64,000 bases of DNA from Escherichia coli (lineage in GTDB: Bacteria; Pseudomonadota; Gammaproteobacteria; Enterobacterales; Enterobacteriaceae): the NCBI RefSeq assembly GCF_041886205.1, contig NZ_CP169029.1. One strand, given 5' to 3'. The notes below the pieces were generated by a model. The model had not been told where the DNA came from. It worked only from the letters and a program-made list of their open reading frames with translations, and did no database searches. Below are positions 15,122 to 51,367 of this stretch, piece after piece; the first letter of the stretch is position 1, and each line of letters begins with the position of its first letter. The translations under genes were made by a program, and so were the position numbers.

Positions 15122-15299
15122 TCATGAAGGCTGGATACACTTTGTTATCCGGCCATTGTGAATTAACGTTAATTTTTCTTCCAAATCTTTCCAGTAACGC
15201 TTTTATTATTTTCTATTTTTAGCTGGACTTTCCCTGTATTTACTGATGATATGTCCAGGTATTTAGCGCGGTGCGGATGTGCGCCAACACACCCGCACC

Positions 15300-15376
15300 A
15301 CTCATCACAATCACTATTTTCAAGGAATAGCAGTTATGACTGACACGCATTTTATTGCACAACCGTTCGAAGCAGA
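15300..15376 (-). ncRNA. symR: Expected position of SymR antisense sRNA (type I antitoxin) overlapping the symE RBS and start
   Basis: Placement inferred from the known symE/symR arrangement; boundaries not determinable from sequence alone. Confidence 0.35.
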
Positions 15377-34300: not shown

Positions 34301-36578
34301 CTCCATGACCGGGAACTTCACGCTAAGTAGTGAAACCGCCCGCACCGATGCAAACGGCGATGCCATGGTCACATTGCGAGGCACAAAAGCGGGTGAGTTT
34401 ACAGTTACGGCGACGCTGACAAGAAATAATACCATTGCTCATCAGCAAGTTTCTTTTATTGGGGATACAAACAGTGCGCAGCTCCAGCCGCTGACTGCCT
34501 CATTAAATACCATTGTTGCGGGTAACAGTACGGGGAGTACCCTGACGGCAACGATCCTGGACGCTTACCAAAATCCGCTTAAAGACCAGCTGGTCACTTT
34601 CCAGAGTAACGATGTCACTCTAAGCGGAACAGAAGTCACCACCAATACGCTGGGTCAGGCGACGGTAACAATGACCAGCAATATTGCCGGACAACATAAC
34701 GTCGTGGTGAGCCGGAAAGCACAAGCCTCCGATAATAAAACGTTTAGTTTATCAGTGCTCCCGGATGAAAGTTCGGCGAAGGTAATAAGTATAACCGGAG
34801 CCGAAAAAACGATAACGGTTGGCGAAAACATCACGCTACGGATACTCGTCCAGGACGCGTTTAACAATGTAATAGCGGGTCAACGTGTCAGATTAAGTGC
34901 GCAGCCAACAGCTCACATTACGATAGGCGATACGGCTTACACCGATAATAACGGTTATGCGTACGTTCACCTTATTAGCACCCAGTCTGGGGTTTATCAG
35001 GTGACGGCAACGCTGGACAATAACAGTAGTAGTAAGGTTGACGTGAATGTGGCAAATGGCAAACTCGAGTTAACATCATCGAAGCCAGAAACCACGGTCC
35101 ATAACAGTGAGGGTATTACGCTTACCGCAACGGCGAGAAATGCGCGGGATGAATTGATGCCTGGGCAAATTATCACCTTTAGCGTAACGCCTGAAGGTGC
35201 AACGCTAAGCAATACAGGGGAAGTCCTTACTGACCAGTCTGGTCAGGCCAAAGTGACGCTGACCAGTGACAAAGTGAATGTCTATACCGTTACGGCCACA
35301 ATGGGCAAAGATGTTCCCGTTCAGAGCCAGGTAACGGTTGCGGTTAAGGCAGATGCTAAAACGGCACATGTTGTAAGCGTCGTGGCCTCTCCTGACACCA
35401 TAACCGCCGACGGCGTTGATAGCAGCACCGTCACGTCACGAGTAGAAGATGATTACGGATTCCCGGTTGAAGGTGTCGATGTTAGTTATGCCTTAGACAC
35501 CAAAGGTCGCCCGGTTGTTAATATTCCAACTACGCGTACCGATCAATCCGGGCAAGTCACGGCGACAATAACCAGTACATTGGCAGAAACCTTAACAGTC
35601 AATGTGCAAGTTCCTGGTACAGCCAACCAATCCGCAGCTATTACCTTGATTGCCGGCACGGCGGATGAAAGTAAGTCAATTTTGAAATCCGACGTTGGCA
35701 CTCTGATGGCTGACTACCAGCATAGCGCGAAACTTACGCTAACATTGCAAGACAAGTACGGTAACCCGATAGTGACGTCTGATCATCTGGAATTTGTCCA
35801 GTCAGGTCCCTTCGTGAACTTTCTCAAGTTGAGCGATATTGATTACAGCCAAAGAAATTATGGCGAGTACACCGTGACTGTCACTGGCGGAAAAGAGGGA
35901 ACAGCGACTCTCATTCCCATGCTGAACGGGGTTCATCAGGCAAACTTAAGCGTATCGCTGAATCTCATCCGCTCGATAAAAGAAATGTCCGGTCATGTCA
36001 CTGCAAACAACCATACCTTCTCCACGGCTAAATTCCCGAGCGAAGGTTTTGCAGGAGCGTATTACACACTCAACAATGATAACTTTGAAGCGGGTAAAAC
36101 CGTTGATGATTATATGTTTTCAAGTTCACAGAGTTGGGTGTCTGTCGATGCGTCAGGTAAGGTTTCTTTCACAAATATCGGCGATCAAACGTCAGTCACA
36201 ATAAGCGCTGTTCCCCGACAAGGAGGTACAACCTACCAGACCTTAATTAAGCTGAAAGGCTGGTGGGTGAATAATGGAAATCAAACCAATATCTGGCTAA
36301 CTGCCAATGCGCTCTGTCATGCGAAAAATGATGGATATACTCTTCCTGGCATCACACATTTGACGTCTGGCGAAAACAAACGCACGCAGGGATCGCTATA
36401 TGGTGAATGGGGGAACGTTGCAGCGTTTTCCAGTAATTCGCCATTTACACCAGGTGCTTACTGGACAAATGAATCTGATGATTACAATAGGCACTACTAT
36501 GTGCAGATGCTAACGGGTATGACCGGAAGCGACGCTGATTCCAGCCCCCAACTGACCGCCTGCCGTAAATCACTTTAA
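31338..36578 (+). CDS. Inverse autotransporter adhesin (intimin/invasin family) with LysM, beta-barrel and many Big domains
   Basis: 1746 aa; SD GGAAGG; extended N-terminal signal region; LysM-like segment (SVADRFGVSLEELRRLNQF); intimin/invasin-type beta-barrel (GLGWRHFTPSWMSGINLFFDHDLSRYHSRAGLGAEYW); at least 12 Ig-like repeats (e.g. TLTATVTDFHNNPLKDMKVNF); divergent C-terminal domain with Cys residues. Confidence 0.8.
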   Translation: MASTNAHQIKNNDQNSLCGLGDKIRRLTAGVCLFTQIFFPVMATAQNVVHAKSQTTVSSAPPLIENNTVPYTLGALESAQSVADRFGVSLEELRRLNQFRTFARGFDNVRQGEELDVPATTSQKSHEQQNAVPPANGENTLENQIASTSQRVGTLLSQDMNSEQASGMARGWASSEASGAMTDWLNNFGTARISLGVDEDFSLKNSQFDFLHPWYDTPDYLLFSQHTLHRTDDRTQINTGLGWRHFTPSWMSGINLFFDHDLSRYHSRAGLGAEYWRDYLKLSSNAYIGLTGWRSAPELDNDFEARPANGWDLRAEGWLPAWPQLGGKLVYEQYYGDEVALFDKNDRQSNPHAITAGLNYTPFPLLTLSAEQRQGKQGENDTRFAVDLTWQPSSSMQKQLNPDEVAGRRSLVGSRYDLIDRNNNIVLEYRKKELIRLSLLDPVKGKSGEIKPLVSSLQTKYALKGYNIEAAALEAAGGKVSTSGKDITVTLPGYRFTNTPETDNTWSIDVTAEDVKGNLSHHEQSMVVIQAPTLSQKDSLLSVNPLTVAADKKSTTTLTVTAHDSDGTPVPGLALQTRSEGVQDITLSDWTDNGDGSYTQMLTAGTTSGSVTLTPQINGESAVKESIVVNIVPVVSSRDHSSITIDNVSYYAGDDIKVRVELKDDSNQPVAYQKEELVKAVTVENSKPGATIVWHEELPGVYTANYPAHKQGTALRAQLSLHNWNAPLQSHIYNIEANQNKARVATLSATNNDVYADKKTFNTLTINVTDESDNPLTNHQVTFKNEKGSAEFVEPPQQNTDAYGVATINMVSQVAEENTISATLPNGFSQRIIAKFVSDSSTPKFKQLVADPDTIIAGNSQGSTLTATVTDFHNNPLKDMKVNFVAPGGSQLDNTTATTDQYGIVRVHLTSSKAGSYSVDASLEADKNIHQSVTITVVPNREQSVMTLNAGSGSAVANNTNTVTLTASVKDVYGHPLPDEDVKFTLPASMTGNFTLSSETARTDANGDAMVTLRGTKAGEFTVTATLTRNNTIAHQQVSFIGDTNSAQLQPLTASLNTIVAGNSTGSTLTATILDAYQNPLKDQLVTFQSNDVTLSGTEVTTNTLGQATVTMTSNIAGQHNVVVSRKAQASDNKTFSLSVLPDESSAKVISITGAEKTITVGENITLRILVQDAFNNVIAGQRVRLSAQPTAHITIGDTAYTDNNGYAYVHLISTQSGVYQVTATLDNNSSSKVDVNVANGKLELTSSKPETTVHNSEGITLTATARNARDELMPGQIITFSVTPEGATLSNTGEVLTDQSGQAKVTLTSDKVNVYTVTATMGKDVPVQSQVTVAVKADAKTAHVVSVVASPDTITADGVDSSTVTSRVEDDYGFPVEGVDVSYALDTKGRPVVNIPTTRTDQSGQVTATITSTLAETLTVNVQVPGTANQSAAITLIAGTADESKSILKSDVGTLMADYQHSAKLTLTLQDKYGNPIVTSDHLEFVQSGPFVNFLKLSDIDYSQRNYGEYTVTVTGGKEGTATLIPMLNGVHQANLSVSLNLIRSIKEMSGHVTANNHTFSTAKFPSEGFAGAYYTLNNDNFEAGKTVDDYMFSSSQSWVSVDASGKVSFTNIGDQTSVTISAVPRQGGTTYQTLIKLKGWWVNNGNQTNIWLTANALCHAKNDGYTLPGITHLTSGENKRTQGSLYGEWGNVAAFSSNSPFTPGAYWTNESDDYNRHYYVQMLTGMTGSDADSSPQLTACRKSL

Positions 36579-38689: not shown

Positions 38690-39862
38690 ATGATTGATTA
38701 TACCGCAGCCGGTTTTACCCTGCTGCAGGGAGCGCATTTGTATGCGCCGGAAGATCGGGGAATTTGCGATGTCCTCGTCGCTAACGGCAAAATTATCGCC
38801 GTTGCCAGCAATATCCCTTCTGACATTGTACCGGACTGCACGGTTGTCGATCTCAGCGGGCAGATCCTCTGTCCTGGTTTTATTGATCAACACGTCCATT
38901 TGATTGGTGGTGGCGGTGAAGCAGGTCCCACGACGCGCACGCCAGAAGTGGCGCTAAGTCGCCTGACGGAAGCGGGCGTCACGTCAGTGGTTGGTCTGCT
39001 GGGCACCGACTCTATCTCTCGCCACCCGGAATCCCTGCTCGCCAAGACCCGTGCGCTCAATGAAGAAGGCATCAGCGCCTGGATGCTGACCGGCGCTTAT
39101 CATGTCCCTTCCCGCACCATTACAGGTTCCGTGGAAAAAGACGTGGCGATTATCGATCGTGTGATTGGCGTGAAATGCGCCATCTCTGATCACCGTTCTG
39201 CCGCACCGGACGTTTATCACCTGGCTAATATGGCGGCGGAATCCCGCGTTGGCGGTTTGCTCGGCGGTAAACCTGGCGTCACCGTGTTCCACATGGGCGA
39301 CAGCAAAAAGGCGTTACAGCCTGTCTATGACCTGCTGGAAAACTGCGATGTGCCGATCAGCAAGTTGCTGCCGACCCACGTTAACCGCAACGTTCCGTTG
39401 TTTGAGCAGGCGCTGGAGTTCGCGCGCAAAGGCGGCACTATCGATATCACCAGCAGCATTGACGAACCGGTCGCCCCTGCCGAAGGTATTGCGCGCGCCG
39501 TTCAGGCGGGTATTCCGCTGGCACGCGTCACCCTCAGCTCCGACGGCAACGGTAGCCAGCCGTTCTTCGATGACGAAGGGAATTTAACCCATATCGGTGT
39601 TGCCGGTTTTGAAACGTTGCTGGAAACCGTGCAGGTGCTGGTCAAAGACTATGATTTCAGTATCAGCGATGCCCTGCGCCCGCTCACCAGTAGCGTAGCC
39701 GGTTTCCTTAACCTGACCGGGAAAGGCGAAATTCTGCCAGGCAATGATGCTGACTTGCTGGTCATGACGCCAGAACTGCGCATTGAGCAGGTATACGCTC
39801 GCGGCAAACTGATGGTCAAAGACGGCAAAGCCTGCGTGAAAGGAACGTTTGAAACGGCTTAA
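38690..39862 (+). CDS. iadA: Isoaspartyl dipeptidase (amidohydrolase superfamily)
   Basis: 390 aa; metal-binding HxH motif (GFIDQHVHLIGGGGE); SD AAGGAG. Confidence 0.85.
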   Translation: MIDYTAAGFTLLQGAHLYAPEDRGICDVLVANGKIIAVASNIPSDIVPDCTVVDLSGQILCPGFIDQHVHLIGGGGEAGPTTRTPEVALSRLTEAGVTSVVGLLGTDSISRHPESLLAKTRALNEEGISAWMLTGAYHVPSRTITGSVEKDVAIIDRVIGVKCAISDHRSAAPDVYHLANMAAESRVGGLLGGKPGVTVFHMGDSKKALQPVYDLLENCDVPISKLLPTHVNRNVPLFEQALEFARKGGTIDITSSIDEPVAPAEGIARAVQAGIPLARVTLSSDGNGSQPFFDDEGNLTHIGVAGFETLLETVQVLVKDYDFSISDALRPLTSSVAGFLNLTGKGEILPGNDADLLVMTPELRIEQVYARGKLMVKDGKACVKGTFETA

Positions 39863-39926: not shown

Positions 39927-40763
39927 ATGGATGACTGTGGTGCGATTTTGCATAATATTGAAACCAAATGGCTTTATGATTTTCTGACCCTGGAAAAATG
40001 CCGCAATTTTTCCCAGGCGGCAGTCAGTCGCAACGTCTCGCAACCGGCATTCAGCCGCCGCATCCGTGCGCTGGAACAGGCGATTGGTGTTGAATTGTTT
40101 AACCGCCAGGTAACGCCGCTGCAACTCTCAGAACAAGGGAAAATCTTCCATTCGCAGATCCGCCATCTGTTGCAACAGTTAGAGAGCAATCTGGCAGAGC
40201 TGCGTGGCGGCAGCGATTACGCGCAACGAAAAATCAAGATAGCCGCTGCACACTCTCTTTCCCTCGGGCTGTTACCGTCCATTATCAGCCAGATGCCGCC
40301 GCTCTTTACCTGGGCAATTGAAGCTATTGATGTCGATGAAGCGGTCGATAAACTGCGTGAAGGGCAAAGTGACTGTATTTTTTCCTTTCACGACGAAGAT
40401 TTGCTGGAAGCGCCGTTTGACCACATTCGCTTATTTGAATCTCAATTGTTCCCTGTCTGCGCCAGTGACGAACACGGAGAAGCACTTTTTAACCTCGCGC
40501 AGCCACACTTTCCGTTACTGAATTACAGCCGCAACTCCTACATGGGGCGATTGATTAATCGCACCCTGACGCGCCACAGTGAGTTAAGTTTCAGCACCTT
40601 TTTTGTCTCTTCGATGAGCGAGCTTTTAAAGCAGGTTGCCCTCGACGGCTGTGGGATTGCCTGGCTGCCGGAGTACGCCATCCAACAAGAAATTCGCAGC
40701 GGGAAGCTCGTTGTACTGAATCGGGACGAACTGGTGATCCCGATTCTGGCCTATGCATACTGA
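39927..40763 (+). CDS. hypT: LysR-family hypochlorite-responsive regulator, C-terminally truncated allele
   Basis: LysR wHTH (LEKCRNFSQAAVSRNVSQPAFSRRIRALE); ORF ends at TGA 40761-40763 and the same frame continues for 24 more sense codons ([24 protein letters not shown]) before the next stop; 278 + 1 + 24 = 303, the length I recall for HypT. Confidence 0.75.
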   Translation: MDDCGAILHNIETKWLYDFLTLEKCRNFSQAAVSRNVSQPAFSRRIRALEQAIGVELFNRQVTPLQLSEQGKIFHSQIRHLLQQLESNLAELRGGSDYAQRKIKIAAAHSLSLGLLPSIISQMPPLFTWAIEAIDVDEAVDKLREGQSDCIFSFHDEDLLEAPFDHIRLFESQLFPVCASDEHGEALFNLAQPHFPLLNYSRNSYMGRLINRTLTRHSELSFSTFFVSSMSELLKQVALDGCGIAWLPEYAIQQEIRSGKLVVLNRDELVIPILAYAY

Positions 40764-40830
40764 ATGAATACCCGCATGAATCCAGTTGCCGAACGCTTCT
40801 GGCGTGAACTGCGCGAGCTGGAGATTGTAC

Positions 40831-41223
40831 TTAGCTGACATTCTCCAGCGTCGCACTACGCCAACCGCCATTATCCCAGACCAGATCAAACGTTAGCGGT
40901 TCATCGTCGTGGTACAGCATTATCTCAAGGCTGATCGCCAGCGTGTGACTGTACGCTTCTTTCAGATTGACCTGCAACGCCGCAATCCGTGGCTCATGAA
41001 ATAACAGTGCAGAACGCAGCTGACGGCAATACCAGCTCTGGAGATGTTTGTCGCTCTGGTTATGCACTTGCCACTCGGGCATGCCTGAAACAAGTAATGA
41101 CGGTAATGCCGAAAGAGGAGAATTAAAAAGAGTGAGGAGATCGCTGCATACCGATTTACGCAGCAATGACGTTTTATTGCCTGAAATTTTAGGTAAAACA
41201 GCCTGAAGTGATTGGCGCATCAT
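40831..41223 (-). CDS. iraD: Anti-adaptor protein stabilising RpoS
   Basis: 130 aa from [11 protein letters not shown]; synteny between hypT and yjiC. Confidence 0.78.
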
Positions 41224-46757: not shown

Positions 46758-46972
46758 CACAAGAAATCAACTCTATTGCTGGTTGATGCAAATGACAACA
46801 AAGGAGAAGCGGCGGTTAGTAATCGGGGGATGTGACATTCATCGCAATAATGGTTGACCAATTTACATAACGTGTCGCCCAAAATAACAATGGATTAACC
46901 TACTCCCCCATTGCATAAGTTGTGACCGACACAACAAAACTGATGTTGTTGCAAAGATTGCTATTTAGTTTT

Positions 46973-46987
46973 GGTATAAAAGGTATA
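46973..46987 (+). promoter_or_regulatory. Tandem GGTATA repeats, NanR-operator-like, about 50 bp upstream of nanM
   Basis: GGTATAaaaGGTATA; NanR is known to bind GGTATA repeats. Confidence 0.4.
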
Positions 46988-47036
46988 CAGGCACATGGTG
47001 CGACATTTGAATTCCAGCGATCAGGAGTAATTCACA

Positions 47037-49846: not shown

Positions 49847-49992
49847 AGAGAATGTCCTTATACGTTCTCAGAACAAGCAGCAAAAAAACAAATGAGATCA
49901 AAGTAATATATCTTCACTTGCAGGCTTGAACAGCAGAAAATTTGCGAGCATGATCGCAATTATTTCACTGCCAGGGAGGTAATGACTCCAAC

Positions 49993-50496
49993 TTATTGAT
50001 AGTGTTTTATGTTCAGATAATGCCCGATGACTTTGTCATGCAGCTCCACCGATTTTGAGAACGACAGCGACTTCCGTCCCAGCCGTGCCAGGTGCTGTCT
50101 CAGATTCAGGTTATGCCGCTCAATTCGCTGCGTATATCGCTTGCTGATTACGTGCAGCTTTCCCTTCAGGCGGGATTCATACAGCGGCCAGCCATCCGTC
50201 ATCCATATCACCACGTCAAAGGGTGACAGCAGGCTCATAAGACGCCCCAGCGTCGCCATAGTGCGTTCACCGAATACGTGCGCAACAACCGTCTTCCGGA
50301 GCCTGTCATACGCGTAAAACAGCCAGCGCTGGCGCGATTTAGCCCCGACATAGCCCCACTGTTCGTCCATTTCCGCGCAGACGATGACGTCACTGCCCGG
50401 CTGTATGCGCGAGGTTACCGACTGCGGCCTGAGTTTTTTAAATGGCGGAAAATCGTGTTGAGGCCAACGCCCATAATGCGGGCGGTTGCCCGGCAT
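49993..50496 (-). CDS. insB: IS1 transposase InsB
   Basis: 167-aa ORF matching IS1 InsB ([19 protein letters not shown]...). Confidence 0.9.
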
Positions 50497-50690
50497 CCAA
50501 CGCCATTCATGGCCATATCAATGATTTTCTGGTGCGTACCGGGTTGAGAAGCGGTGTAAGTGAACTGCAGTTGCCATGTTTTACGGCAGTGAGAGCAGAG
50601 ATAGCGCTGATGTCCGGCGGTGCTTTTGCCGTTACGCACCACCCCGTCAGTAGCTGAACAGGAGGGACAGCTGATAGAAACAGAAGCCAC
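50415..50690 (-). CDS. insA: IS1 protein InsA
   Basis: 91 aa, zinc-finger [37 protein letters not shown]; overlaps insB as in IS1 (frameshift fusion InsAB'). Confidence 0.9.
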
Positions 50691-50766
50691 TGGAGCACCT
50701 CAAAAACACCATCATACACTAAATCAGTAAGTTGGCAGCATCACCCAGCAAACGAACCTGGATGAT

Positions 50767-51282: not shown

Positions 51283-51367
51283 GGTGCCGAAGGCCGGACT
51301 CGAACCGGCACGTATTTCTACGGTTGATTTTGAATCAACTGCGTCTACCGATTTCGCCACTTCGGCA
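51283..51367 (-). tRNA. leuX: tRNA-Leu (anticodon CAA)
   Basis: 85-nt minus-strand sequence GCCGAAGTGGCGAAATCGGTAGACGCAGTTGATTCAAAATCAACCGTAGAAATACGTGCCGGTTCGAGTCCGGCCTTCGGCACCA; anticodon loop TTCAAAA; next to ahr as in K-12. Confidence 0.92.

Follow-up and report, generated by a model that had tools for sequence, protein, structure and literature searches.

A single C-to-T transition at position 40761 has turned the Arg279 codon (CGA) of hypT into a TGA stop in the Escherichia coli DNA analyzed here, a stretch of 64,000 nucleotides from contig NZ_CP169029.1 that is called the window throughout. The change, R279*, is a genuine inherited mutation and is most likely fixed in one minor clonal lineage of E. 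coli. Loss of function is its probable consequence: we put at about 0.8 the probability of a null or strongly hypomorphic allele, a figure that also takes in how certain the mutation itself is. R279* is strain-level decay of a non-essential regulator, of the ordinary kind, and no new type of system emerges from it. In E. coli, dispensable regulators commonly carry nonsense alleles.

The split hypT gene and its parental allele

The neighborhood of hypT shows the canonical gene order yjiG-iadA-hypT-iraD, as established from profile matches and annotations, and its iadA-hypT-iraD portion is collinear with the corresponding regions of K-12, S43, 2013C-3033, ET201 and O157 TR01. Upstream of hypT lies iadA, encoding isoaspartyl dipeptidase (38690-39862, plus strand; TIGR01975, 623 bits). 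Downstream lies the convergent gene iraD, encoding an anti-adapter protein (40831-41223, minus strand; NCBIfam IraD NF010726, 295 bits), the 3' end of which overlaps the ancestral 3' end of hypT by 8 nt. The hypT mutation leaves the iraD coding sequence untouched. No further gene lies between hypT and convergent iraD, and no polar effect is expected.

The window sequence and the list of open reading frames (ORFs) show that the first hypT ORF (yjiE/qseD; 39927-40763, plus strand) is initiated by ATG and comprises 278 codons followed by the premature TGA of codon 279, which occupies 40761-40763 on the plus strand in the four-base context TGAA. In the same frame, an ATG at 40764 directly follows this stop, and 24 codons then remain open until a second TGA at 40836-40838. 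This orphaned 3' remnant (40764-40838, plus strand) consists of codons 280-303 and the ancestral stop codon. The original prediction had described a hypT frame that stops at the first TGA and then stays open for 24 residues, and both the sequence and the ORF list confirm that description.

Profile searches identify the two pieces as parts of one gene. The 278-aa product matches the NCBIfam HypT equivalog model NF007488 with 640.1 bits (cutoff 301) over profile positions 1-278 of 303, while the 24-aa remnant searched alone matches positions 280-303 of the same model with an E-value of 2.4e-8. Since the pieces are adjacent segments of NF007488 with one codon between them, they represent a split homologue rather than a chance open frame. 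The domains PF00126 (HTH_1) and PF03466 (LysR_substrate) are recorded on a protein identical to the 278-aa product. The window gene is a hypT allele by descent, but it does not encode intact HypT: residues 279-303 are gone, and with them the terminal helix and Trp292 that belong to a complete regulatory domain.

The same gene occupies the same locus in K-12, where HypT (YjiE, QseD) is a hypochlorite-specific LysR-type regulator. The hypT gene of K-12 MG1655 (b4327) is 912 nt long and encodes 303 aa, with Arg at codon 279 (CGG). K-12 HypT therefore runs past residue 278 with Arg279 in place, and its length agrees with the 303 aa (278 + 1 + 24) from which the truncation had been proposed. Both Arg279 and the helix bearing Trp292 are present in the K-12 protein, whereas the 278-aa window product has neither. 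Across the 912 nt, window hypT differs from K-12 at 5 bases, with Q274L and R279* as the protein changes; residues 1-278 are otherwise those of K-12, and the remnant is identical to K-12 residues 280-303.

A closer parent is found among complete genomes. The 912-nt hypT sequence was searched by megablast against 5,426 complete RefSeq E. coli genomes, of which 5,392 contain hypT. None of the 5,426 matches the window sequence at 100%, and the best identity, 99.9%, is reached by six genomes including S43. The full-length S43 allele shows a single mismatch to the window over the 912 nt, at 40761, where S43 has C and the window has T. Because S43-type alleles carry CGA and differ only at this base, the single CGA-to-TGA-type change proposed at the outset is borne out. 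Codon 279 is likewise CGA in hypT of O157:H7 TR01.

The other protein change relative to K-12 affects codon 274 (40746-40748, plus strand), a missense difference in which the window has CTG (Leu) and K-12 has CAG (Gln). A full-length allele with Leu274, WP_001564404.1, occurs on 463 contigs. As Q274L is already present in the full-length parental allele, it predates the stop. The substitution lies in the last beta-strand at a column that is variable among homologues, and by this comparison it is probably neutral.

Inheritance and distribution of the stop

Because the window hypT lies only one base off the closest complete genomes, and because no complete RefSeq genome has the stop, an artefact of sequencing or assembly in the source genome, with the real gene intact, has to be weighed. 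An exact-sequence look-up in a public protein collection finds the 278-aa product on 85 contigs drawn from NCBI, ENA and Logan, and a gene-position index places it in 107 blocks. The GenBank records of the product, EKI47470.1 (titled 'HTH-type transcriptional regulator QseD [Escherichia coli N1]') and GDH14212.1, come from different projects. At the nucleotide level, the TGA is present in all three non-redundant places: an NCBI isolate (GCA_022973295.1), an ENA metagenome (ERZ28665467) and the Logan assembly ERR13331444. Over 6.8 kb, these independently made assemblies are each only 1-2 SNPs away from the window, with different SNPs in each. A shared TGA combined with private SNPs indicates an inherited mutation in a slightly diversified clonal lineage and not a base-calling error; moreover, the change is a substitution rather than a homopolymer indel. 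The exact-protein look-ups and the three assemblies rule out sequencing error, which had been named as the alternative to a real stop, and we give the artefact reading as a whole next to no chance. The private SNPs among lineage members also imply that the allele has persisted and has been at least tolerated.

The rarity of the allele was assessed with a 30-mer across the TGA (GGCCTATGCATACTGAATGAATACCCGCAT), from which megablast cannot seed a match unless the T is present. This 30-mer has no match in the 5,426 complete RefSeq E. coli genomes, whereas a control 30-mer with CGA matches 1,571 genomes of the same set at 100%. An exact-match search with a 61-mer is likewise negative in all 3,380 genomes covered, a search that a genome carrying the TGA together with another mismatch would escape. 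Over 22 kb, the closest complete genome is ET201, at 99.6% identity; that the closest relative stands at only this level indicates a lineage with no closed RefSeq representative.

Several other features of the window became apparent in the course of these comparisons. At 46,900-47,022, a block of about 12.5 kb that in K-12 MG1655 comprises nanC-fimB-fimE-fimAICDFGH-gntP is missing, leaving only about 120 bp without a match between nanM and the region upstream of uxuA. The canonical locus thus has no type 1 fimbriae operon. At 46,900-47,022 the window and ET201 are collinear, so that the absence of fim is common to both. A segment of about 770 bp at 49,977-50,746 stands where ET201 has a 9.9-kb block containing an AbiEii-family pseudogene, DUF6088, DUF4942 and a type I restriction-modification system with an IS3 insertion. 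The segment adjoins a tRNA-Leu gene (51,285-51,366, minus strand), and this arrangement marks it as a variable islet of the leuX tRNA hotspot. Between yjiJ and kptA, at approximately 31,000-36,500, collinearity with ET201 (L008 10,339-15,579) predicts iatD, a large inverse autotransporter gene of about 5.2 kb in ET201; by annotation it does not occur in the K-12 interval, where kptA adjoins yjiJ. Rfam matches at the gathering threshold comprise the SymR antitoxin sRNA (15,265-15,341), Ysr276 (57,381-57,575) and naRNA4 (CssrE; 58,409-58,484), all on the minus strand. These are ordinary E. coli small-RNA or repeat features and are unrelated to the hypT stop.

Other irregular forms of HypT occur among public proteins. 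Nine representatives (P0017-P0020, P0027, P0029, P0036, P0048 and P0059) follow HypT at 95-99% identity for only part of their length, beyond which their sequences depart from it. These partial representatives include tails produced by frameshifts into other hypT frames, a fusion of iadA(1-203) to hypT(206-303) and fusions to foreign sequence. Their sequences suggest other independent hypT disruptions among public E. coli data, or assembly artefacts. Further disruptions of this kind, some of which may be artefacts of assembly, are consistent with a dispensable gene.

The lost C-terminal segment and its predicted importance

To describe what the stop removes, HypT was aligned with 101 full-length homologues (27-81% identical) taken from a full HMMER scan of 1.84 billion representatives. 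These homologues were picked for aligning to at least about position 290, so that the finding that all 101 reach at least HypT position 295 is partly a product of their selection. The remaining HMMER matches of about 300 aa have the C-terminal residues as well. Only four columns are invariant in the 102 sequences. Three of them, Q39, E50 and R60, lie in the DNA-binding domain, and the fourth, W292, lies in the lost segment; no other residue of the regulatory domain is invariant. Position 279 itself is Arg in 87% of the aligned sequences.

The secondary structure of a confident AlphaFold2 model built from this alignment (mean pLDDT 94.4, pTM 0.85) is consistent with the LTTR fold; its last beta-strand spans residues 271-280 and its last helix residues 286-297. 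According to the model, the 25 lost residues include two at the end of this strand and the entire C-terminal helix, which carries Trp292. HypT(1-278) keeps the winged helix-turn-helix domain and the linker helix, as well as most of the regulatory domain with its dimer-interface elements and the ligand cavity. A check of individual residues shows that Cys4, Met123, Met206 and Met230 are also kept, together with Ile273 of the Met206 pocket. Roles in HOCl sensing have been described for Met123, Met206 and Met230 and for Cys4 (PMC3792123, PMC6397515). Because the DNA-binding domain, linker, dimer interface, cavity and sensor methionines are all retained, HypT(1-278) may have residual or altered activity.

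Structures of related proteins place the lost helix in subdomain RD-I. In the HypT homologue VV2_1132, RD-I is formed by residues 101-155 and 284-300, the latter being helix alpha12, and the crystal structure shows alpha12 to be one of only three RD-I helices (PMC5935101). HypT of Salmonella Typhimurium, solved at full length (5YDW) and as the regulatory domain (5YDO, 5YDV, 5YER and 5YEZ), aligns with E. coli HypT over residues 1-301 with an E-value of 4e-165, and the C-terminal pattern RMNTRM..VAE.FWR.LR is conserved across both genera. The Salmonella authors define the regulatory domain as residues 100-302 (PMC6397515). The solved Salmonella proteins are full length, whereas window HypT ends at residue 278.

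The proposed consequence follows from the position of this helix. Ribosomes would stop 25 codons early and release HypT(1-278), a protein that would keep its DNA-binding domain and HOCl-sensing methionines while being without the terminal helix of RD-I. Without this helix and its Trp292, the RD-I sheet would keep only two of its three covering helices, so that hydrophobic surface would be exposed and the regulatory domain destabilized. Since the terminal helix is one of only three that pack against this sheet, we infer that the truncated protein would be unstable, defective in oligomerization and DNA binding, or both. The C-terminus of LTTRs has been described as important for oligomerization and for non-specific DNA contacts (review, PMC11495319), and HypT itself is prone to aggregation, with single Cys substitutions altering its stability (PMC3792123). 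The wild-type protein, a dodecamer or tetramer, sediments at about 11.4 S. Under hypochlorite stress, the lineage would then lose, or show weakened, induction of Met and Cys biosynthesis and repression of iron uptake. The effect of QseD on motility would also be lost or weakened, and motility might increase, given that deletion of qseD in K-12 raises it (PMC5935101).

The closest precedent comes from another LysR-type regulator. CysB variants lacking 19-30 C-terminal residues are reported to lose repression and to have DNA-binding and oligomerization defects (Lochowska et al., 2001, as summarized in PMC11329422). As far as that summary describes them, the CysB truncations are of similar scale to that in HypT(1-278) and remove the same structural element. 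They are, however, engineered and concern a different LTTR, so that any extension to HypT would be by analogy. In crystal structures of CysB, the C-terminal residues make no interchain contacts (PMC11329422). The conserved last helix of RD-I, its invariant Trp292 and the CysB precedent lend indirect support to the original suggestion that losing the C-terminal segment may affect oligomerization or response, which is plausible.

A natural short form of the regulator has also been described in another E. coli lineage, EHEC O157:H7, for which a truncated QseD is reported (Habdas et al., 2010, as cited in PMC5053249). In the one O157:H7 genome inspected here, TR01, the annotation gives a full 303-aa hypT. 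The EHEC isoform reportedly lacks the N-terminal HTH and keeps its C-terminus. The EHEC truncation and R279* are unrelated events.

Alternative readings and meaning for the lineage

Set against loss of function is the reading that HypT(1-278) remains stable and binds DNA, having become HOCl-blind, constitutive or dominant, so that it rewires regulation and may be adaptive. The truncated protein does keep the DNA-binding domain, the linker helix, Cys4 and Met123/206/230 intact, and the allele has been maintained in a lineage that has diversified. The truncated EHEC QseD is moreover reported to be functional and to repress ler (PMC5053249, citing Habdas et al., 2010), and because K-12 lacking qseD is more motile (PMC5935101), loss or alteration of the regulator could be selectable. 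The lost helix, however, is a core element of RD-I and contains W292, the one invariant position in the regulatory domain, and the analogous CysB truncations, as summarized in PMC11329422, lose DNA binding and oligomerization. The stop is also found in one haplotype only and is absent from the 5,426 complete genomes, which gives no sign of recurrent selection. On balance, we regard an altered-function protein as unlikely. A broader proposal joins several of these elements, with HypT(1-278) either retained by the lineage as a stable HOCl-blind or constitutive DNA-binder or rescued by a 24-aa peptide produced through reinitiation at TGAATG, and with this allele and the missing fim operon, 6 kb away, together marking an adaptive change in how the lineage regulates its surface, motility and oxidative-stress response. 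This combination is a long shot.

The stop might instead be bypassed, either through readthrough or selenocysteine-type recoding that yields full-length HypT, or through UGA-AUG reinitiation that yields a 24-aa peptide complementing the truncated protein in trans. Of the E. coli stop codons, UGA is the most prone to readthrough, and an in-frame ATG abutting the stop (TGAATG) can permit low-level reinitiation; the TGAA context, on the other hand, is not known to be notably leaky. The 24 downstream codons are still intact, a state that can be attributed to the youth of the mutation, the gene being only one base in 912 nt away from the parent allele. All relatives encode Arg at codon 279 rather than selenocysteine or UGA, and the homologues, with Arg at 87% and not selenocysteine or Cys, show no signature of selenocysteine/cysteine recoding. 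An Rfam scan of the whole window detects neither SECIS nor any other RNA element at the stop, with no match near 40.7 kb, and the 91 nt at 40750-40840 fold no better than shuffled sequences (z = 0.34); selenocysteine or structured recoding was rejected on these two results. A reinitiation signal was rejected because the 25 nt upstream of the ATG at 40764 contain no Shine-Dalgarno-like motif, which leaves low-level reinitiation independent of such a motif as the only conceivable form. Taken as a whole, bypass of the TGA is very improbable, and loss of function through truncation stays the preferred reading.

The gene and the locus are known, and the 278-aa product has already been deposited in GenBank under HypT/QseD names; a search of the open-access literature found no paper that discusses it. 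Annotations of this lineage should mark hypT as interrupted by an internal stop (R279*) rather than list it as an intact regulator. The mutation is also a single-base difference that cleanly marks a minor clonal lineage absent from the complete RefSeq genomes. Strains that carry it may be more sensitive to hypochlorite, as encountered with neutrophils or in chlorine disinfection, and may show altered regulation of iron uptake, of Met and Cys, and of motility. For the HypT clade, R279* constitutes a natural test of whether the terminal helix and Trp292 are needed for stability and oligomerization.
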